A DNA stretch of 64,000 nucleotides from the IMG/VR virus record IMGVR_UViG_3300044826_000112; one strand, given 5' to 3'. This document shows positions 20,103 to 28,571 of the stretch, in pieces. The translations under genes were made by a program, and so were the position numbers. How positions within the stretch are numbered: position 1 is the stretch's first letter; every line of letters begins with the position of its first letter. The DNA is from a virus. The notes under the pieces are model-generated. The model was not told where the DNA came from, searched no databases, and worked only from the letters and a program-made list of their open reading frames with translations.

Positions 20103-20114
20103 AACAAAGGAGGC

Positions 20115-21071
20115 CTAGGCCTCCTTTTTAGCTTCCAAGATGCAATCTAAGCACTTATGACTGATAACCCCTACTTTGAGATAGAATTCATCCACCGCTG
20201 ATAGGAATTCTGGCTCTAGAAGTTCTGCATACTGATGACACTTATCTCGATACATAAAGTACGGCATGCTGATAACTCTATGGGCCACAGCTTCTATGTG
20301 TAGAGCAACCTTAGGTTTAGACCAAGGCTTCAATCCTCCAGCGAAATGAACGACGCCAACATCTCCATTAACCGCTTTGAAAAGCATGAGAAGGGAGTAG
20401 TTGATGTGATTAGCTGCCCTAGATCTTGGGTCGCCGAAGTAGTTGTATCTACTGCTCAGAAGTGTGACGTCTTCTTTTAGCTTACGGAACAGATACTCTT
20501 GATCCGGCAGTAGGAATTCCTTGAATCCATATCGATCTGGAGTTAACCCCTCTGGATACTTCCTTCTAACCTGCTCGAGATCTACTAGCATCAATCCGCT
20601 GTTGAAGGTGGCGAAAGGATCTTTGTACACATACATATAGGCGGAGTCTGCCGCATACATAGAGTTGCTGGCTGGACCGATATCTCTAACGGCCCCTAGC
20701 GTACGGCCTTGAAGATCTACGTTCCAAATGTCTAGAAGAGATGGGCGTAGAACCATATCTGCATCAAGATATAGCACCTTATCCACACCTCTAGCTGCCA
20801 ACTCATCTATAGCCAAGATCCTCATGACTAATGGGTTGGGGTCGCCGTAGATTATAGGCACATCCGCATGGAACTCGAAATCCCGATACTCTATGTGCAT
20901 AGTCTCAATGCAACTCTTGCCGAATTTATCCCGCACATAGGACTCTAAGTCGTCACTGGATGTGGCCAAGTAGATGTAGGCAGAGGGGTCCACCTCCATG
21001 ATATTGGCCATTAGAAGAACTACTTGGTTTCTCCAATTCCAGTCTGATGTGACCAGGTACCGTCTAGTCAT
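20115..21071 (-). CDS. Glycosyltransferase family 8
   Basis: VLYLDADMV, FNSGLMLVDL, PDQEYL, HFAGGLKPW. Confidence 0.9.
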   Translation of the reverse strand: MTRRYLVTSDWNWRNQVVLLMANIMEVDPSAYIYLATSSDDLESYVRDKFGKSCIETMHIEYRDFEFHADVPIIYGDPNPLVMRILAIDELAARGVDKVLYLDADMVLRPSLLDIWNVDLQGRTLGAVRDIGPASNSMYAADSAYMYVYKDPFATFNSGLMLVDLEQVRRKYPEGLTPDRYGFKEFLLPDQEYLFRKLKEDVTLLSSRYNYFGDPRSRAANHINYSLLMLFKAVNGDVGVVHFAGGLKPWSKPKVALHIEAVAHRVISMPYFMYRDKCHQYAELLEPEFLSAVDEFYLKVGVISHKCLDCILEAKKEA

Positions 21072-22150
21072 ACCTGGGCATCCATGTAGGTCGTAACGTC
21101 TTCAAACTTCTTCATTACCCTTAGGTCTCTGGGATGAGTCATCTTGTGGATGGCCGACAAGACTGACTTATTGACGTCCGCAGTCATCTCACCCTTCATC
21201 ATCTTATTCCAGTAGTACTTGAGGTACGTCAGACGCACATCATCGATGTCATCCCGTAGCTGCGGTACGAAGTGTACCGGATACTCCAAGGAGGCGATGT
21301 TGAAGCGGAACTGCTTGCCAAACTCAGAGTACAGGAACTCGATGTAGTCAGGCAGGTCGTGGGCGTTCATATTGCTCATCGTGAAGTGCGATTCGCAGTA
21401 GATACCCAGACGCTGGCAGAGGGCTACGTTCTTGGCGATCAGGTCGTTCTTCACCTTTACACGGATCTTCTCGTTCACCTCAGGAGAGCCATCAATGGAG
21501 AACGTGATGGTAATACGGCAGGCGTTGTCCCTCAAGATGGGGAACACACGATGCTTCTCAATGTCCACAGAACCGTTGCTCAGGAAGGAGACAGTAGCGT
21601 TGGTGCGGGTAATCACCTGCTCGACGATGTCATAGATGTCACGAGTCATGAACGGCTCACCTCCATACAGGATTACCTGCTTGGGGTTCGACTTGATGAT
21701 ATGCTCGAGGTCACTACGGTGTTGCTTGTACGGCTCATAGTCTTGACGTACCGGGATGATGAGCTCAGGGAAGATCTTCTCGAACATGTCGCTGTACGAG
21801 TTATCGCAGGTACGGCACGCCAAGTTGCACTTGTTGCCTAGGAAGTAGAAGATCTGGCCAGGCTGAGCTGCAACTTCACCAGTCTCAGGGTTGTAGCCGA
21901 CTTCCTTCACGACGTTCATAGTCGGAGAGTAGGTGTGGTCACCAGTATCACCAGACGCCATGCACTTCTTGCAGTCATCTGGCACATCGCCTGACAGCAT
22001 CTGTTTGCGGAAGTTCTTCAGGTACTCTGAGTTCCACCATTCGTCTACGCTATCCATAGACTGAGGGGTCGCCCGGCGAGAGCAGCATGGACGGAAACCA
22101 TCCGGCTTCACCGAGAAGACGTAAAACGGGGCACTGCATAGTGGGATCAT
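21068..22150 (-). CDS. Radical SAM protein with an N-terminal twitch/SPASM-like domain
   Basis: N-terminal C..PF...DG.RPCC...WWNSEYLKNFRKQMLSG...CKKC; CNLACRTC cluster motif; GGEPF; SIDG. Confidence 0.9.
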   Translation of the reverse strand: MIPLCSAPFYVFSVKPDGFRPCCSRRATPQSMDSVDEWWNSEYLKNFRKQMLSGDVPDDCKKCMASGDTGDHTYSPTMNVVKEVGYNPETGEVAAQPGQIFYFLGNKCNLACRTCDNSYSDMFEKIFPELIIPVRQDYEPYKQHRSDLEHIIKSNPKQVILYGGEPFMTRDIYDIVEQVITRTNATVSFLSNGSVDIEKHRVFPILRDNACRITITFSIDGSPEVNEKIRVKVKNDLIAKNVALCQRLGIYCESHFTMSNMNAHDLPDYIEFLYSEFGKQFRFNIASLEYPVHFVPQLRDDIDDVRLTYLKYYWNKMMKGEMTADVNKSVLSAIHKMTHPRDLRVMKKFEDVTTYMDAQV

Positions 22151-23103
22151 TCTAATAAGTCTCCTACGATACGCCCGATAAAGGCGTAGTTATCATGATT
22201 GTCACGGCAAGCGTACAGGAACCTAGTGTCGATACAGCCTACCTCTTCGACAGCCTCGTTGCATGCCTTATAGTACACATCGTATCGGATGTGGGCAAAT
22301 ACCTCTCTCGGGATGGCTCCTGTGAATGCCACCCAAGGCTTAAGCTTACCTGCAAAGTGCATCACCCGGGCGGTGTGATAGGCAGCCACTCGGTCCTGCA
22401 GTAGGGTCACTGCACTCATAGCCTCTGCGACCAACAGCTCTGGCATCCAGTTGAACACTCTGGGCAGGATCACTGTAGGCTTCCTGGACAAGATCTTGTT
22501 CAGATAGTCTTGATCTGGAAGGATCCAGCGACCGTCATACGACTCGATGAACCCATTGGCAATTCCCTGTGGGAAATCCTGCCGGATGAGGTCTAAGTTG
22601 AGCATCATTACGCCACTATTGAAGTAGTTACGATTGAGGCTCATACGGCGGTTCCAGTCGAAATGCTTGCGGTACAGATTCGGCATCTCTTGGACTCTCT
22701 GGTAATCCAGAGCAGCAGCCACATACGAGTTGTCTAACGGGGCATTCCAGATTCCAGCCAGGCTCGTTCTGACAACGATATCACTATCTAAATAGAATAG
22801 CCGAGAGACGTCTGGTCTATGCTCGGCTAGGTAATCGATAGCCTTGAGTCTCAAGCACATTCCTTCCACTTCAATCGGGCAGAAGTAACTATTTGGGAAC
22901 CAAGAGGTATCGTTGGGTTCCAACAGGACGACTGACACCTTGTACTTGCTGAGTACTTCCTTGTACTTAAGGGCATTCTGCGTGGCGGTGGTAGCGAATA
23001 CCATCACCTCATCATCGGGGTTGTGCCGCAGGTAACTGTTGATAGTCACCACGCCTTGATTCAGATACGCACCGTTGATGGTAAAGATTGTCAGACGTCC
23101 CAT
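22147..23103 (-). CDS. Glycosyltransferase family 8
   Basis: FYLDSDIVV, YFNSGVMMLNL, PDQDYLN, HFAGKLKPW. Confidence 0.92.
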   Translation of the reverse strand: MGRLTIFTINGAYLNQGVVTINSYLRHNPDDEVMVFATTATQNALKYKEVLSKYKVSVVLLEPNDTSWFPNSYFCPIEVEGMCLRLKAIDYLAEHRPDVSRLFYLDSDIVVRTSLAGIWNAPLDNSYVAAALDYQRVQEMPNLYRKHFDWNRRMSLNRNYFNSGVMMLNLDLIRQDFPQGIANGFIESYDGRWILPDQDYLNKILSRKPTVILPRVFNWMPELLVAEAMSAVTLLQDRVAAYHTARVMHFAGKLKPWVAFTGAIPREVFAHIRYDVYYKACNEAVEEVGCIDTRFLYACRDNHDNYAFIGRIVGDLLE

Positions 23104-23106
23104 TGC

Positions 23107-24054
23107 TTACTCCATGTAATCTCTCAAGAACTTGCCTACGAAAGAGTTCAGATCTGCGTTCACTTGGACTTGGCCTACGAATGTGTTGCACAGCTTCACA
23201 TCAGAGACCAGCAGGCGCTTGACGATAGCGTAGTACACGTCATAGCGGATGGTTCCTGCCCGCTCATCTGGGATGAGACGAGGTTGAGACCATGGCTTCA
23301 GTCTGCCTGCATAGTGATACAGGAGAGCGTTAGAGCCCAAGTCTCGCTGACCAATCAGCATGGAGCTCGACATCTGGCGGAACATCTGGATCTCCGGCAT
23401 GAAGTTGAAGATCCGCGGCATGATCAGAGTCGGAGTGTTCTCCGAGAACACCATGTTCAGGTAATCCTGGTCATCTTGCTTCCAGCTTGGGTCGTAGCGA
23501 TCCTTGAAGCCTTGCTCAAGTTTGCCTTTGAACACTTCGCGGATACGCGGCATGTTCAGCAGCATGACTCCACTGTTGAAGTAGTTGTCATTGATATCCA
23601 ATCTGCGGTCCCAATCCGGGTGCAACTTGTACAGGTGCTCCAGTTCAGGCAGAGCTGGGTAGTCCAGAGCAGCAGCCACAAGGGAATTCCGCAGAGGTGC
23701 TGCCCATACGCTTGCCATGGGACGCATACAGACGGTATCGGAATCCAGATACAACGCCAGACGTACGTCAGGCATCTGAGTGTCGATGTAGTCGATAGCA
23801 GCCAGGCGTAGCAGGGCTCCATTGACCTCGTCCGGTGCGAAGACCGAACTCTTATGCCAAGAGCTGTCCATAGGGGTGAGCACTTGGGTTTCAATCTCAA
23901 TCTTTCCGAGATCTGCTTTGAACTTCTCGGCATCCACATCGGGCGTGTGGAACACCATTACTGGGATACTTGGATTGACCTTCTTAAAGGAGGCCACTGC
24001 GACTTTGGCAGGTTCCAAGTACAGATTGTTAATGCAGAAGAAGGTTAAGTTCAT
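23107..24054 (-). CDS. Glycosyltransferase family 8
   Basis: LYLDSDTV, YFNSGVMLLNM, DDQDYLN, HYAGRLKPW; close paralog of 22147..23103. Confidence 0.92.
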   Translation of the reverse strand: MNLTFFCINNLYLEPAKVAVASFKKVNPSIPVMVFHTPDVDAEKFKADLGKIEIETQVLTPMDSSWHKSSVFAPDEVNGALLRLAAIDYIDTQMPDVRLALYLDSDTVCMRPMASVWAAPLRNSLVAAALDYPALPELEHLYKLHPDWDRRLDINDNYFNSGVMLLNMPRIREVFKGKLEQGFKDRYDPSWKQDDQDYLNMVFSENTPTLIMPRIFNFMPEIQMFRQMSSSMLIGQRDLGSNALLYHYAGRLKPWSQPRLIPDERAGTIRYDVYYAIVKRLLVSDVKLCNTFVGQVQVNADLNSFVGKFLRDYME

Positions 24055-24755
24055 CGTAAGACTTTCCTTAAGTGGTTCGAACGGTCATTAAAGTATCGGT
24101 ACACATGATAATCCAATACTCCTCGAAAATCTTGTGATAATAGCTGTCTGACCCTTCTTTTTAGCCCCTCCGGCAGCGGGACGTCCTTGAACATCTCTCC
24201 GGAGATCATCAATCGCTGTACCGAAGAGTCGTGGTGCACGAAGTCCCGGTAACCCAACGCAAAGGCTTGCAGCATAAAGAAGAAGCACTCGTTGTAGTTA
24301 TGGCGGCCTACCGTGAACGACTCCATGACTTCCCGTGCCATTTTGGTACGGAAGATCTGGCAGCTACAGGCCGTCAGGAAGGCCCTTGAGAGCTCGTCTA
24401 CGACGACGCTGCCGTTGAAGACTCTAGGTATCAGCTGGTACATGTCGTGGCCTCCTGGAGCGTCGTAGGCGTCCTCAGAGAGGTAATCGTCCGCATCCAG
24501 GAAGTGTACGTACTCGGTGTCGACATGTGCCAACCCTTCACGTCTAGTCTCCCACTGCCCTAAGTTCTGCTCCCGATAGATCAGCTTCTTGACGTTGCTT
24601 TGATCGATCAATGGGAGCAGGTCAGGATCTCCACTATCAACAATGACAATGTTATTGCCAGATGGAATTCGAGATAGTGTTTCGTTAAGAGCGTAGAGAC
24701 GGTCTTGCTGAAGGAGAACCGGTACGATAGTCGTGATAGAATCTTTGATAAGCAT
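24051..24755 (-). CDS. Glycosyltransferase family 2-like
   Basis: TTIVPV, IVIVDSG, QNLGQWETRREGL, EYVHFLDADDYL. Confidence 0.8.
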   Translation of the reverse strand: MLIKDSITTIVPVLLQQDRLYALNETLSRIPSGNNIVIVDSGDPDLLPLIDQSNVKKLIYREQNLGQWETRREGLAHVDTEYVHFLDADDYLSEDAYDAPGGHDMYQLIPRVFNGSVVVDELSRAFLTACSCQIFRTKMAREVMESFTVGRHNYNECFFFMLQAFALGYRDFVHHDSSVQRLMISGEMFKDVPLPEGLKRRVRQLLSQDFRGVLDYHVYRYFNDRSNHLRKVLR

Positions 24756-25545
24756 CCAGATATTCCTCCATTCTCTCCTCTACTCCTGGGACATCCAGGA
24801 ACAGCCCGGACTCCGGGAACTCGATCATATCCCATAGATATCCTCTAAACAACGCATGATAGAAGGCATAGTAGGGGCCTGTGTGCTCACGAGAAGGGAT
24901 AATGTGCACGTTCTTCTCTAAGATGCCTGCAGTAAGGCCTACCTCAGAGCACTTCAAGGTGTACACGTTCTGACTACGCTCAACCAGATACATGCCGGAG
25001 AACTGAGGTGCCATTACATATGCTCCAGTCCCTCTCAAGAACCCCTCCAGCTGAGCATAATCCTGAGCTAGGATCAGAGGATGCGGCTTGAAGATAGCCC
25101 CGGGGTGGCGAAGAGCAATGTCGATAAGGTCTTGCTGGGCGATTGTCTTAATGATATTCGAACCTGGCAGGATCACTACGGTGTCCGAGTGATACAGAGG
25201 AAGCAGCTGATTGCTGTACTTGTCACCTACATGGTCTGCAATGAGATTGCGGTAAGAGAGGCCGATACAGCCACGCTCTTTAAGCGAGTCCACCATGTTC
25301 AACGTGAAGGCGTTATCGCACGGACGAACATATAGTCCGCCGAGGTTGACGAACATCTCGGTGTACGTGAGGTTTTCAGGACGTCCAGGGTAGGACATAT
25401 CGTATTCGATGAAGATGCCGCGGGCTCTAGCCTTGGCAACGAAGATATCCGCTAGCTTCTTACTGCTAGCGAATCCATCTTTAGGTGCGGTAAAACCGCA
25501 GCGGCCCATAAGGACCGCTGGGGAGTTGTGATCATTTAGTAGCAT
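24685..25545 (-). CDS. Putative GT-B glycosyltransferase resembling capsule-synthesis (KpsC/KpsS-like) domains
   Basis: VILPGSN, IFKPHP, SGMYLVERSQNVYTLKCSEVGLTAGILEKNV resemble the HP motif and 'V.T..S.VG..A....K.V' signature. Confidence 0.55.
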   Translation of the reverse strand: MLLNDHNSPAVLMGRCGFTAPKDGFASSKKLADIFVAKARARGIFIEYDMSYPGRPENLTYTEMFVNLGGLYVRPCDNAFTLNMVDSLKERGCIGLSYRNLIADHVGDKYSNQLLPLYHSDTVVILPGSNIIKTIAQQDLIDIALRHPGAIFKPHPLILAQDYAQLEGFLRGTGAYVMAPQFSGMYLVERSQNVYTLKCSEVGLTAGILEKNVHIIPSREHTGPYYAFYHALFRGYLWDMIEFPESGLFLDVPGVEERMEEYLDAYQRFYHDYRTGSPSARPSLRS

Positions 25546-25711
25546 TGGCCAGCACCAACTCAACTTGCTTTCTGTAGTGAGACAGCACGTCGTTCATGCG
25601 GGTTTCGTACTTCAAAATGAACTCGAGGAATGCAGCTGCTTGAGCATCCTGAGAGCGGATGACTTCGTTCAGCTTGGCTTCCAATTCTGCAACTTTAGCT
25701 TCAAGACTCAT
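25532..25711 (-). CDS. Small coiled-coil protein (59 aa)
   Basis: AAGGAG RBS; MSLEAKVAELEAKLNEVIRSQDAQAAAFLEFILKYETRMNDVLSHYRKQVELVLANATK; below the ORF-track cutoff; overlaps the next start. Confidence 0.8.
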   Translation of the reverse strand: MSLEAKVAELEAKLNEVIRSQDAQAAAFLEFILKYETRMNDVLSHYRKQVELVLANATK

Positions 25712-25745
25712 GGTAATCTCCTTATGTCGGTGCGGTAACTATACA

Positions 25746-26165
25746 TCAACGCCAGAAGGTTGACCAGTACGAAGTCCATGCTGTTGTGGTTGGTCTGCTC
25801 TTCCAAGCTGACTTGGCCAAGGATTTACCGATAGCGGTCCCTCGAGAAACCTGCCAACTAGTCGTAGTAGTACTATTACTACACCCACCAGAGGCAGTTT
25901 GCTGAGAGGTAGTCCAATAGGTCGTCCAGTACGAGGTCCAGTAGGAAGTCCAGTATGAAGTCCAACCAGTGGTCGTAGATCTGCTTACTGCTAAGCTAGT
26001 CGTGTGGTAAGCACTCTTGCTGTAGAAGTGAGAAAGACTGATCGAGCCACTTGCGGGGATTCCAGGAGCTGCTCCGTAGTATTCATTAAGGGAGATCGGG
26101 TTTGTACCCCCGAACTCCGCTTGAACTTGAGCCATTGTGATGGCCCCACTCGCTTGCATAACCAT
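25746..26165 (-). CDS. Tail-fibre tip/adhesin-like protein with Thr/Ser/Trp repeats, paralog A
   Basis: N-terminal fibre-attachment-type module (SGAITMAQVQAEFGG..ISLNEYY..IPASGSISLSHFYSKS) followed by WTSYWTSYWTSYWTTYWTT. Confidence 0.75.
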   Translation of the reverse strand: MVMQASGAITMAQVQAEFGGTNPISLNEYYGAAPGIPASGSISLSHFYSKSAYHTTSLAVSRSTTTGWTSYWTSYWTSYWTTYWTTSQQTASGGCSNSTTTTSWQVSRGTAIGKSLAKSAWKSRPTTTAWTSYWSTFWR

Positions 26166-26168
26166 GAT

Positions 26169-26570
26169 TTATCTCCAGAATGTTGCCCAGGAGGTCCACC
26201 ACGCAGTGCTTGTACTCATGCTCTTAGGGATCGACGTAGATTGGGAAGTCGTACGGGAAACCTGCCAGGTTGTCGTGTAGTAGATGGTGGAACCACAGCT
26301 ACCAGACATTGTGGTTTGACGGCTTGTATTCCAAGTCGTTACCCATGCAGTCGTCCAGAAAGACACCCAAGAGGTTGTGGTATTCTGGCTGGTTACGCGG
26401 CTGGTCGTGTGATACGCACTCTTACCGTAGAACTGGGAGATGCTGATGGTACCGCTGCCAGGGATCCCAGCAGCAGCTCCGTAGTACTCGCCAAGATCGA
26501 TAGGGGCAGTTCCTCCGAATTCGTTTTGAATGTCGAGGAATCCAATTAAGCCACTAGATGGAAGTGTCAT
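26169..26570 (-). CDS. Tail-fibre tip/adhesin-like protein with Thr/Ser/Trp repeats, paralog B
   Basis: MTLPSSGLIGFLDIQNEFGG...GTISISQFYGKS then WVSFWTTAWVTTWNTS...WWTSWATFWR. Confidence 0.75.
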   Translation of the reverse strand: MTLPSSGLIGFLDIQNEFGGTAPIDLGEYYGAAAGIPGSGTISISQFYGKSAYHTTSRVTSQNTTTSWVSFWTTAWVTTWNTSRQTTMSGSCGSTIYYTTTWQVSRTTSQSTSIPKSMSTSTAWWTSWATFWR

Positions 26571-26581
26571 AGATTGCTCCG

Positions 26582-27196
26582 TTAGTTGTACTGCCAGATA
26601 TCGTCGGGGATCTGGCTGGAAATGTCAGAGTAATCAACGGTGATAGCCTGAACATCGTCTAGCGTCTTAGCCTTCTGAAGTCTATCCTCCAGGCCTTGAC
26701 GGCGTCCGAAGGTGGCACCGGAGATTTGTGCGAACAGATTTGCCTTCTCGATGATCCGATCGACCAGAATCTCCTTGTCGATGCCGCGGTAAAGGGCGAT
26801 AGCATCAGTCATAGGAGTCGGGTAGTTCGGGTCTCTGCGATAGTGCAAAGCTTCGATCTCTTGCTTGTACCATGAGACGATCTCCATCACAGGATAGATG
26901 GAGGTCACCTTGGATAAGGCCTCATCGGCCTTCAAATTGATCTCATTGAGTTTAGATCTTTTGGCCAAATCAAGAGTGTTGTAGATGGTATCACGGAATT
27001 CTAACCGGCCACTAACAACATACACGACTTTCCCTTTGTTTTGCTGACGGATGGCCGTGTCATAGACGTCATAGCTCACCTCTAGCGATGGGTACGGGAC
27101 TGTCGGAGAGGTGTTGGTGTCATAGAACCCCTTCACCTTGCCTGTACCTACGTCGTAGTGGATGTAATAGTAGATTACACCTTGAGAATCAGACAT
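26582..27196 (-). CDS. Tail fibre assembly protein/chaperone
   Basis: Directly after a fibre gene; GFYD...P N-terminus; AKRSKLNEI...YP..EI.SW..QE.EA...RGIDKEILVDRII pattern typical of fibre-assembly proteins. Confidence 0.75.
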   Translation of the reverse strand: MSDSQGVIYYYIHYDVGTGKVKGFYDTNTSPTVPYPSLEVSYDVYDTAIRQQNKGKVVYVVSGRLEFRDTIYNTLDLAKRSKLNEINLKADEALSKVTSIYPVMEIVSWYKQEIEALHYRRDPNYPTPMTDAIALYRGIDKEILVDRIIEKANLFAQISGATFGRRQGLEDRLQKAKTLDDVQAITVDYSDISSQIPDDIWQYN

Positions 27197-28571
27197 TTTG
27201 CTTACCCTCCAGCTTTTCCAGACGACGAGTCAGAGCAGTAATCGCAGCAGCTTGTACAGCAACGACACGCTCGTAAGTCATAGTCTTGTAGTTCTCCCCA
27301 GATTTAGAGACGATGGAGCCATCTTCTAAGGTTTCGTAATCGAACGGGGCGAGCGGAGTCAGCTCTGGGAAGTCCTTATTGACCTCGCCGGCCAACAGGC
27401 CTACTTCCAGCTTCCTAGGGTCATATCCGTACTTAGCACCTAGATCGTTAGCGTGGTAGCGAACTTTACGCCAGCGGTTCACAGCATCCAGGCAGAACTC
27501 CGGATCTAGCTCTTCGATAACCTCTTTGAGGCGCTCATCGGAGTAGTACGCAGTTACGTTGCTACCGAAAGCCCCTTCGCCTGCCGTGTAGAAGTTCTTA
27601 CCGTTGTACACACGGACCCAGGTGGTGTCGGTCATGTGCATGCCGCCACCGTAGGTTTCACTGTACCAACCGGAACCACCAATAGATCTGAACCAGTTAT
27701 TCGTGTACACGGTTCCGTAAGATCCGCCGTCTGCCATAGCACCGATTTCTGCCGGAGTAGGTTTTTGGTTACCGTTGTAGTTGACTACCCAGGCAGTCCA
27801 AGCCCCAGCGTTTACCTTGTAGCGGTAAGCGTGGCGTCCACTGGTATCCATGTAGTCCTGCCAGATCCAGTTGTTAGTGTTGTTGTGCGTGCCACCATCT
27901 GAAACCATGACCATAAGACGACCATAGATACCGCCGGCCCATGGGGCGTTAGGGACGTTAGCAGCTGATCCGAAGGTGTAGAAACCGTCAGAAAGTGCTG
28001 CGTTGAAGTCAGTCAGACTACCTCTATTTGTGTTGAAGTAGAGGGCATCGTGGTTGTGACTTGCAGACGCCGCACCGAGCCACGTCATCACCGCGGCAGG
28101 GTTGCTGCAGTATCGGGTGTAGTTATCCGTGCTGCTATTGGTGCGAAAAGCAATAGCACCATTCATAGTAGTCTGATCCGCGTAGCTAGCCCGCAGTAGA
28201 CGCACACTAATATCAGCACTGCCGTCGCGAAGGGCTAGTGTATTAGCAGTTGCGGCAGATGACTGATTGTTCAGGTCAGTGATATCAGCAGCAGTATGCG
28301 TGTGGGCAGTAGCTGGGAAAGTAGATGGCTTACCAGTGATACTCCCCCAGGCCGGAGACCCGAGGCCTGCAATGGCCGCCATGGCAGCGTCATAGGCTGC
28401 CTTTACGGCAGCACTTGTTGCGTACGTAGTAGAAGACGCAGTCGTGTAGCTATCAGACGCACCCCAGTTGTTAACACTGCCAAGACCGACAGTGGTTTTA
28501 TCCGGGAAGTAGTTCCCTGCGTGGTACGCAGCGAACCCCCCGATAGTTGTTCCAATTGATAAATCAGCCAT
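27189..28571 (-). CDS. Tail fibre protein with a C-terminal intramolecular chaperone (peptidase S74)
   Basis: ATSAAVKAAYD fibre repeat, KPTPAEIGA, NVTAYYSDERLKE autocleavage site, GLLAGEV...YERVVA. Confidence 0.9.
   Translation of the reverse strand: MADLSIGTTIGGFAAYHAGNYFPDKTTVGLGSVNNWGASDSYTTASSTTYATSAAVKAAYDAAMAAIAGLGSPAWGSITGKPSTFPATAHTHTAADITDLNNQSSAATANTLALRDGSADISVRLLRASYADQTTMNGAIAFRTNSSTDNYTRYCSNPAAVMTWLGAASASHNHDALYFNTNRGSLTDFNAALSDGFYTFGSAANVPNAPWAGGIYGRLMVMVSDGGTHNNTNNWIWQDYMDTSGRHAYRYKVNAGAWTAWVVNYNGNQKPTPAEIGAMADGGSYGTVYTNNWFRSIGGSGWYSETYGGGMHMTDTTWVRVYNGKNFYTAGEGAFGSNVTAYYSDERLKEVIEELDPEFCLDAVNRWRKVRYHANDLGAKYGYDPRKLEVGLLAGEVNKDFPELTPLAPFDYETLEDGSIVSKSGENYKTMTYERVVAVQAAAITALTRRLEKLEGKQNV

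Follow-up and report, generated by a model that had tools for sequence, protein, structure and literature searches.

We analyzed a 64,000 nt stretch of DNA (in the following called the window) from an uncultured phage and delineated within it a cassette that may encode a protein glycosylation system (Table 1). The phage record holding the window, IMG/VR record IMGVR_UViG_3300044826_000112, is 175 kb long and an estimated ~98% complete; among isolates it is closest to Salmonella phage Arash and the Vibrio phages D69, D181, and D148. On the minus strand, a fiber operon runs from ~36.8 to 26.6 kb and contains, according to Pfam and PHROG matches, two fibers with Peptidase_S74 chaperone domains, a 1559-amino-acid (aa) fiber, and a connector-like protein. 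The cassette continues from this operon without interruption. An initial annotation, made from the sequence alone, had listed two Thr/Ser/Trp-rich paralogs, a 59-aa protein, a GT-B-like glycosyltransferase (GT) with a K-P-H-P motif (called KPHP protein below), a GT2, two GT8 enzymes, a radical S-adenosylmethionine (SAM) enzyme, and a third GT8, in this order and in overlapping or abutting genes. Coordinates, Pfam, and NCBIfam agreed with this series in every item. All twelve minus-strand open reading frames (ORFs) of the operon end and the cassette were present where they had been placed, and the cassette genes overlap by 4–71 nt or are separated by gaps of 3–34 nt.

Table 1 Features of the cassette and of the adjoining end of the fiber operon, with positions in the window.
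Feature	Position	Strand	Basis
Thr/Ser/Trp-rich paralog, 133 aa, proposed glycan acceptor	26169..26570	-	~52-aa N-terminal module and tail
Thr/Ser/Trp-rich paralog, 139 aa, same architecture	25746..26165	-	WTSY units
Helical protein, 59 aa	25532..25711	-	family alignments
KPHP protein, GT-B, 292 aa counted from TTG	24685..25563	-	phrog_26179; fold; motifs
GT2 with DAD motif	24051..24755	-	PF00535
GT8 a, with DSD and HxxGxxKPW	23107..24054	-	PF01501
GT8 b	22147..23103	-	PF01501
Radical SAM enzyme with N-terminal twitch (auxiliary Fe-S) domain	21068..22150	-	NF033640, phrog_14086, PF04055, Cys pattern
GT8 c, with DAD and HxxGxxKPW	20115..21071	-	PF01501
Terminator-like hairpin closing the operon directly 3′ of the last GT8, shared with a convergent PD-(D/E)XK nuclease gene	20106..20127	-	consensus scan only
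204-aa protein, probably a fiber assembly factor	26582..27196	-	phrog_2618, E 1e-31
Tail fiber with C-terminal Peptidase_S74 intramolecular chaperone, 460 aa	27189..28571	-	PF13884 and fiber PHROGs
Tail-fiber connector-like protein, 588 aa	28601..30367	-	phrog_1154, phrog_16097 (long-tail-fiber connector families)

The tails of the two paralogs begin after residue 53 and comprise 80 aa in the 133-aa protein and 86 aa in the 139-aa protein. They had been described as roughly half Thr/Ser with periodic Trp, and the counts agree: Ser and Thr make up 50% and 47% of the residues, respectively, and the 9 and 10 Trp residues lie mostly four residues apart. The WTSY units of the 139-aa paralog appear in the DNA as a 12-nt tandem repeat. 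In their best 60-aa window the paralogs reach 52–53% Ser+Thr, with 6.8–7.2% Trp overall; among the other ORFs of at least 80 aa in the whole genome, none exceeds 42% Ser+Thr in such a window and none exceeds 4.9% Trp. The ranking behind this comparison had omitted both paralogs, displaced by a longer antisense ORF. A plus-strand ORF of 181 aa (26004–26549), antisense to both paralogs, is an artefact created by the repeats that code for Thr and Ser, because more than 500 IMG/VR loci conserve the N-terminal domain encoded on the minus strand; it could mislead gene callers.

This N-terminal module of ~52 aa (SGxIS..IQ.EFGG.NPISLSEYY...SG.IS.S.FYG) recurs in more than 536 IMG/VR loci, and in many of them an S74-type fiber gene ends only a few bases from its start. 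It is fused to many unrelated C-terminal domains, and the Thr/Ser/Trp tail is one rare variant among them. In some Rhizobium T4-like phages the overlapping gene is annotated as a tail fiber adhesin. The module matched nothing in Pfam, PHROG, or the PDB, and neither the ESM Atlas nor a PDB profile search gave a lead; we read it as an attachment module. The AlphaFold2 (AF2) model of the 139-aa paralog reached a predicted local distance difference test (pLDDT) value of only 38 and was unusable.

The KPHP protein, which probably begins with the ATG at 25545 and not with the TTG, has no Pfam match. An exhaustive HMMER search delineated its family as 211 clusters, with proteins of ~200–340 aa plus a few fragments and longer forms. 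Its AF2 model, built from 66 sequences, has a pLDDT of 91, and the top PDB matches found by Foldseek were KrkA, KpsC, and WbbB (E 1e-5 to 8e-4). With VIA-align, the model superposed onto both domains of KpsC (6mgc; Z 10.1, root-mean-square deviation 3.9, 218 residues) and matched KrkA and WbbB with Z 10.0 and 9.4, respectively, whereas generic GT-B enzymes matched over ~100–115 residues only, in the C-terminal Rossmann half. The fold thus bears out the GT-B assignment.

Seven residues are invariant in the family (K115, Y116, G134, N136, K159, H161, and P162). K159, H161, and P162, unchanged in 66 of 66 members, represent the (K/R)XHP motif, a CMP-binding motif common to sialyltransferases and to transferases of Kdo (3-deoxy-D-manno-octulosonate) (PMC12887879). 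A profile search of PDB sequences aligned K-P-H-P and the S-E-x-G...GK segment of the KPHP protein with KVHP...SQxGFE..GK of KpsC, with a best E-value of 0.014, i.e., negligible sequence similarity. A further defining feature of the retaining Kdo enzymes is a QXXXD motif with a nucleophilic Asp (PMC12887879). At the sequence level, this motif is absent from the 66 KPHP family sequences: a QxxxD of any kind within 50 residues upstream of HP occurs in six of them, at unaligned places and with no conserved Q or D, and the region is occupied by LPG(S/T)N with the invariant G134 and N136. The KPHP family therefore shares with KpsC/KpsS (GT107), WbbB (GT99), and KrkA (GT140) the two-domain modified GT-B fold (Z 9–10, Foldseek E 1e-5) and the (K/R)XHP motif with the S-x-x-G...GK segment following it, but differs from these retaining β-Kdo transferases in the QXXXD region and in overall sequence. 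Known β-Kdo transferases also act on glycolipid or glycan acceptors, whereas the conserved neighbor of the KPHP enzyme is a protein. The retained CMP-binding motif together with the missing QXXXD points to a new family of CMP-sugar-type GT-B enzymes, and the KPHP protein is a predicted CMP-sugar (or CDP-polyol) transferase outside GT99, GT107, and GT140.

The gene-neighborhood search that the initial annotation had proposed was then carried out on the loci of KPHP relatives, which were gathered with a sub-alignment as neither the single protein nor broad alignments gave anything usable. A hidden Markov model of the family matched 30 ORFs; without the window and the locus that duplicates it (L001), 28 remain. 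Two loci lie at contig ends, and the count covers the 25 loci with upstream sequence, KVP40 added. A protein with a 60-aa window of 50–78% Ser+Thr was found directly upstream of the KPHP enzyme in 24 of them. The sole exception is Stenotrophomonas phage DLP_6, in which the helical gene and the enzyme come after a fiber-like ORF and there is no separate Thr/Ser-rich gene. As a background, 55 of the 1201 ORFs of at least 100 aa in all fetched loci reach 45% Ser+Thr, and 23 of these 55 lie directly upstream of the enzyme. In most loci, the gene for the small helical protein stands between the two; no small ORF was found there in Caulobacter phage Quill and in contig L047.

The carriers fall into about eight groups; many fetched loci are near-duplicates, and the groups are our own, formed by N-terminal type and phage context without a tree. 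They comprise the Arash-like phage of the window, KVP40-like T4 phages, T4-like contigs sharing their downstream gene order with DLP_6, T7-like Caulobacter phages, and several marine groups. KVP40 and its relatives carry the module as genes 0254, 0255, and 0256, the Thr/Ser-rich protein being KVP40.0254, and the 44-kb T7-like Caulobacter phages have no such genes other than those for the Thr/Ser-rich protein and the enzyme. The Thr/Ser-rich proteins range from 128 to 392 aa, have periodic aromatic residues and often repeats of the STTTTFNTSR type, and carry at least five different, unrelated N-terminal domains. NxS/T sequons are abundant in some of these relatives; modification at O-linked sites rather than at sequons is the type we would expect. 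The conserved neighborhood supports the suggested arrangement of the substrate gene first and the tailoring enzymes after it, and a tight, conserved gene order that includes a low-complexity, hydroxyl-rich protein fits a dedicated pair of acceptor and enzyme. Because the conserved partner is a protein gene, glycosylation of DNA by the cassette is unlikely.

The position of the module relative to fiber genes differs between carriers. In the window, the T4-like contigs, and the Caulobacter phages, the Thr/Ser-rich gene lies within or at the end of fiber operons, whereas in KVP40-like phages the module is found among non-structural genes. A placement of the paralogs at the fiber tip, as originally suggested, therefore fits the window, where they follow the S74 fibers, and does not extend to KVP40. 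The latter arrangement would also suit a role of the Thr/Ser-rich protein as primer or carrier of a long polysaccharide, in the manner of proteoglycans or of glycogenin, maybe as a non-virion decoy or matrix component inside the infected cell. Glycogenin is a GT8, and the cassette contains several GT8s. The virion proteome of the KVP40-like phage 6E35.1a (PMC12028318 Table S4) lists no module protein (VP6E351A_0311-0320), which is uninformative for the Thr/Ser-rich ORF, as this lies outside the gene set used. The fiber-operon position in the other carriers and the wide, fiber-adjacent distribution of the N-terminal module argue against such a primer, and no polymerase-type or export genes were seen; we consider it improbable.

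The gene set of 6E35.1a reflects a wider annotation problem. In the OZ-series records of KVP40-like phages (D484, F86, and 6E35.1a), the ORF corresponding to KVP40.0254 is split into two or three tiny coding sequences (L002:9001–9534; L087:8001–8558; L110:3946–4479). Consequently, the 6E35.1a re-annotation, and presumably the virion proteomics based on it, is without the Thr/Ser-rich protein. Record MW824377 annotates the ORF as 'putative cell wall mannoprotein'. We therefore name KVP40.0254 and its relatives as a gene that these re-annotations have broken into fragments.

The 59-aa protein of the window belongs to a single alignable family with the core "INK+lE..l..vLEHf...E.R". Its members measure 48–83 aa and always directly precede the KPHP enzyme, abutting or overlapping the enzyme start. 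Complex prediction for the helical protein and the KPHP enzyme gave a score of 0.55 against 0.00 for the best control, with runs agreeing in at least 71% of contacts and a partner pLDDT of at least 83; for calibration, 58 of 80 solved complexes passed the mark for this score, as did 2 of 110 mismatched pairs, and scores up to 0.60 came from only seven of the 80 solved complexes plus both mismatches that passed. A comparable division of labor exists in flagellin glycosylation. FlmG transfers pseudaminic acid from its CMP form to Ser/Thr of flagellin in the cytoplasm, Maf enzymes work with N-acetylneuraminic acid (Neu5Ac) or Kdo, and FlmG of Caulobacter needs a separate protein-binding element, a tetratricopeptide repeat (TPR) domain (PMC7591256). 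By analogy with the binding domains of FlmG and Maf, the helical protein may be an adaptor of the KPHP enzyme, with which the weak signal of the complex prediction is consistent.

Alternatively, both proteins might be non-catalytic assembly chaperones for a beta-rich Thr/Ser/aromatic fiber-tip domain, in the way of T4 gp57A and gp38, and the other GTs an independent add-on. T4 gp57A is a small helical fiber chaperone, and the small helical protein likewise comes directly after fiber genes. The order in DLP_6, where both genes follow a fiber-like ORF, the lack of QXXXD, and the conservation of the tail Trp positions, all of which are kept in seven close homologs, would agree with such a role. 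However, K-x-HP, S-E-x-G...GK, and G134/N136 are invariant in 66 diverse sequences, as expected of nucleotide-binding motifs in an enzyme and not in a scaffold. The Thr/Ser-rich repeats, moreover, vary greatly in length and copy number, a better fit to a modified low-complexity region than to a chaperoned fold. A purely structural role of the pair thus appears about as doubtful to us as that of a polysaccharide primer.

The remaining enzymes of the cassette are less widespread. The three GT8s match PF01501 with 66–94 bits (cut-off 24.3), possess the DxD motifs LYLDSD, FYLDSD, and LYLDAD as well as H..G..KPW in all three, and resemble best the lipopolysaccharide (LPS) alpha-galactosyltransferase type (NF011718). 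In the GT2, PF00535 covers the N-terminal 90 residues only (36.1 bits, cut-off 23.3), including a FLDADD motif. A GT8-related ORF follows the KPHP enzyme in 23 further loci. The relationship was established through L089 and L090, which match a window GT8 at E 4e-8 to 3e-9, and by profile-profile comparison (hhalign; E 1e-8, probability 95.6%); the divergent family had no match in a PDB profile search. In most other lineages this partner has R-G-G or K-S-G in place of DxD and no HxxGxxKPW (L032:11487–12359; L086:2696–3448; L091:4377–5090; L095:6824–7519). Judging from these motifs, it may be non-catalytic or of another chemistry. In the window, three canonical GT8s and the GT2 stand in place of this partner. 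The enzymes had been taken as one system, which holds for the conserved KPHP core; the radical SAM enzyme and the canonical GT8s and GT2 are accessories of this phage.

The radical SAM protein matches the N-twitch family NF033640 (N_Twi_rSAM) end to end, with 164.3 bits, which is below the curated cut-off of 170. It has a CX3CX2C motif (C108/C112/C115) and N-terminal cysteines (C5/C22/C23/C60/C63), which are conserved in phage homologs. Vibrio sp. MEBiC08052 and Photobacterium kasasachensis hold its closest bacterial homologs, with 35–37% identity. In both, the next gene encodes a GT8 sharing 30% identity with GT8 b of the window (E 2e-27), and these pairs (L116:5869–8019, L117:5947–8016) lie beside flhB, fliR, and genes for TPR proteins. 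The recurring order suggests a self-contained unit of radical SAM enzyme and GT8 that may derive from a locus for flagellar glycosylation. The KPHP profile was also run against Vibrio, Photobacterium, and Bdellovibrio genomes with a radical SAM homolog, but the empty answer is uninformative. Homologs also occur in several Bdellovibrionota genomes. In one metagenome-assembled genome of this group (L120:3543–9766), at least four genes for radical SAM enzymes are clustered: a plus-strand row of three, to which the match belongs, and one gene on the minus strand. One of the genes encodes an N-terminal SPASM-like domain.

The radical SAM enzyme accompanies the core module in only two of the about eight lineages, namely the phage of the window and the KVP40-like phages; the latter have two paralogs (L109:9943–12049). 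These are also the lineages with periodic-Trp tails; the tails of the T4-like and marine contigs lack both Trp and a radical SAM partner, and the Caulobacter protein contains two isolated Trp. With two lineages, this correlation is too narrowly based to be judged. In KVP40-like phages, the KPHP module and the radical SAM gene are separated by genes for a QueC-like PP-loop protein, a nicotinate phosphoribosyltransferase (NAPRT)-like protein, and a 2-oxoglutarate (2OG)-Fe(II)-oxygenase-like protein, the last assigned by visual inspection from an HxD...H motif (L002:11239–13486; L109:8386–9940). The QueC-like protein is a second copy, and these genes are separate from the 7-deazaguanine cluster of the phage.

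Since the cassette had been likened to clusters for ribosomally synthesized and post-translationally modified peptides (RiPPs), we asked whether the radical SAM enzyme might cross-link or otherwise modify the Trp-rich tails, as maturases of the streptide, darobactin, and triceptide types do, with glycosylation being secondary. Its core is indeed weakly similar to the SPASM/twitch maturases WgkB, DynA, and YhhB (E 1e-7 to 3e-6, far below the cut-offs), and its restriction to the periodic-Trp lineages points the same way. Yet most lineages with the core module do without this maturase, its closest bacterial homologs pair with a GT8 and not with a peptide gene, and the family scans of the cassette, which included no dedicated search, showed neither a RiPP recognition element (RRE) nor a leader-type peptide. 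The comparison with RiPP clusters was thus not upheld, and peptide maturation as the main function is in our view the least probable of the alternatives.

Another possibility is that the transferases remodel a glycan of the host surface, such as LPS core, capsule, or a flagellin glycan, for instance to block superinfection, and that the Thr/Ser-rich proteins are unrelated fiber-tip adhesins encoded nearby. The match of the GT8s to LPS-type enzymes would suit such a role, as would the activity of KpsC, WbbB, and KrkA on capsule or O-antigen, the bacterial radical SAM and GT8 pair next to flagellar export genes, and the interpretation of phage GT clusters as capsule modification systems by Iyer et al. 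(PMC7824862). It leaves unexplained why the Thr/Ser-rich gene and the enzyme occur together in about eight lineages, including 44-kb phages that have only these; chance adjacency is very unlikely at the background frequency of such proteins. Membrane or lipid-carrier enzymes do not appear among the annotated cassette genes, although no systematic search was made for them. We therefore regard host-surface remodeling as rather unlikely.

In our best reading, the cassette encodes a protein glycosylation system together with a dedicated substrate, a mucin-like phage protein that would be O-glycosylated in the cytoplasm; in this phage the system would be expanded to a multi-sugar pathway. We assign this reading a probability of about 0.5; none of the alternatives accounts as well for the conserved gene set and the intact nucleotide-binding motifs. 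The two paralogs would attach to the virion, probably to the S74-type fibers, via the ~52-aa N-terminal module and expose their Thr/Ser-rich, Trp-studded tails. In the infected cytoplasm, the KPHP enzyme would start O-glycosylation of the tail at Ser/Thr from a CMP-activated acidic sugar of the host, for which CMP-Kdo is the most generally available candidate, with the 59-aa protein as its putative partner or adaptor. The GT2 and the three GT8s with intact motifs could then extend this primer to an oligosaccharide from host UDP-sugars, and the radical SAM enzyme might modify the glycan or the Trp-rich tail. Three families of sugar-nucleotide enzymes (CTP_transf_3, NTP_transferase, and Epimerase) were not found in the phage genome, so that the donor sugars are probably supplied by the host.

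A more far-reaching proposal, which we think unlikely, is that in phages of Gram-negative bacteria a dedicated, mucin-like protein of the tail fibers receives an LPS-core-like glycan, by CMP-Kdo-type priming, WaaI/J-like extension by GT8s, and tailoring by a radical SAM enzyme, yielding a sugar brush that mimics the host or shields the phage. The widespread core module would then be a so far undescribed protein O-glycosylation pathway, with the model phage KVP40 among its carriers and with the Thr/Ser-rich protein and the KPHP enzyme, usually joined by the helper and a GT8-like protein, as its core.

Several findings weigh against our best reading. That the Thr/Ser-rich proteins bear a glycan and are located in the virion is something we infer. 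The fold of the KPHP protein is also matched by TagF-type CDP-glycerol transferases and a polysialyltransferase, and because the QXXXD nucleophile is missing, both its chemistry and its donor are uncertain. The invariant Trp positions of the tails could mean a folded, beta-rich domain and not a disordered, mucin-like one. To this are added the loss of DxD from the GT8-like partner in most other lineages and the distance of the KVP40-like module from fiber genes. Finally, the nearest isolate does without the cassette: the fiber operon of Arash (gp185–192, 109282–119642) is syntenic and adjoins a PD-(D/E)XK nuclease gene, and it has at this site neither Thr/Ser-rich genes nor transferases. As the whole cassette is lacking there, we regard it as accessory, an insertion in the phage of the window.

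Compared with FlmG and Maf, the cassette would have in common the cytoplasmic transfer of a CMP-activated acidic sugar to many Ser/Thr residues of a protein that forms an external filament. It differs in lacking a TPR or Maf domain and in its acceptor, which would be a dedicated low-complexity phage protein instead of flagellin. To our knowledge, self-glycosylation of phage particles has been shown only in a few mycobacteriophages. Freeman et al. reportedly described it in 2023 for the virions of Che8, Corndog, and Myrna, with capsid and tail-tube subunits as acceptors. There, too, phage GTs are encoded next to structural genes and are proposed or shown to act on proteins of their own particle; those phages, however, have Actinobacteria as hosts and use other enzyme families, whereas our predicted system has at its core a small, separately encoded Thr/Ser-rich protein together with a helper and a GT-B enzyme of the CMP type. 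The work of Freeman et al. is cited in PMC12619734. In the literature on the trio of Thr/Ser-rich, helical, and KPHP proteins, on phage Kdo transferases, and on twitch radical SAM enzymes with phage GTs, we found no description of such a system. What the window adds to the core module are the GT2, the three canonical GT8s, the N-twitch radical SAM enzyme, the two Trp-periodic paralogs, and the position after S74 fibers.

If correct, this would be a second, unrelated system of particle self-glycosylation, present in many phages of Gram-negative bacteria, and its CMP-sugar-type transferases would form a new family that works on a dedicated protein acceptor. It would matter for how hosts are recognized, for how the immune system recognizes phages used in therapy, and for the enzymology of Kdo or nonulosonic acids linked to protein. 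Cultivable carriers are available in KVP40, the Caulobacter phages Lullwater and Quill, and Stenotrophomonas phage DLP_6.

Upstream of the cassette, the 204-aa protein occupies the same place in the operon as Arash gp189, annotated as 'tail fiber assembly protein', a likeness of position only. The cassette gave no megablast match to isolate phages. Freshwater, lake, and wastewater runs of 11 studies contain the phage or strains with more than 90% identity to it; this DNA may itself stem from three of these runs. In four runs, contigs from RNA libraries span the cassette on both strands; they possibly represent phage DNA and are hence no sign of transcription or co-transcription. Among them is a 24.7-kb contig of a ~93% identical strain, in which the cassette is kept and small indels occur in nearby compensating pairs. 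In the same contig, 526 nt within the gene of the 460-aa S74 fiber (window positions 27743–28270) are replaced by 529 unrelated nucleotides, which looks like a swap of a receptor-binding domain between strains.

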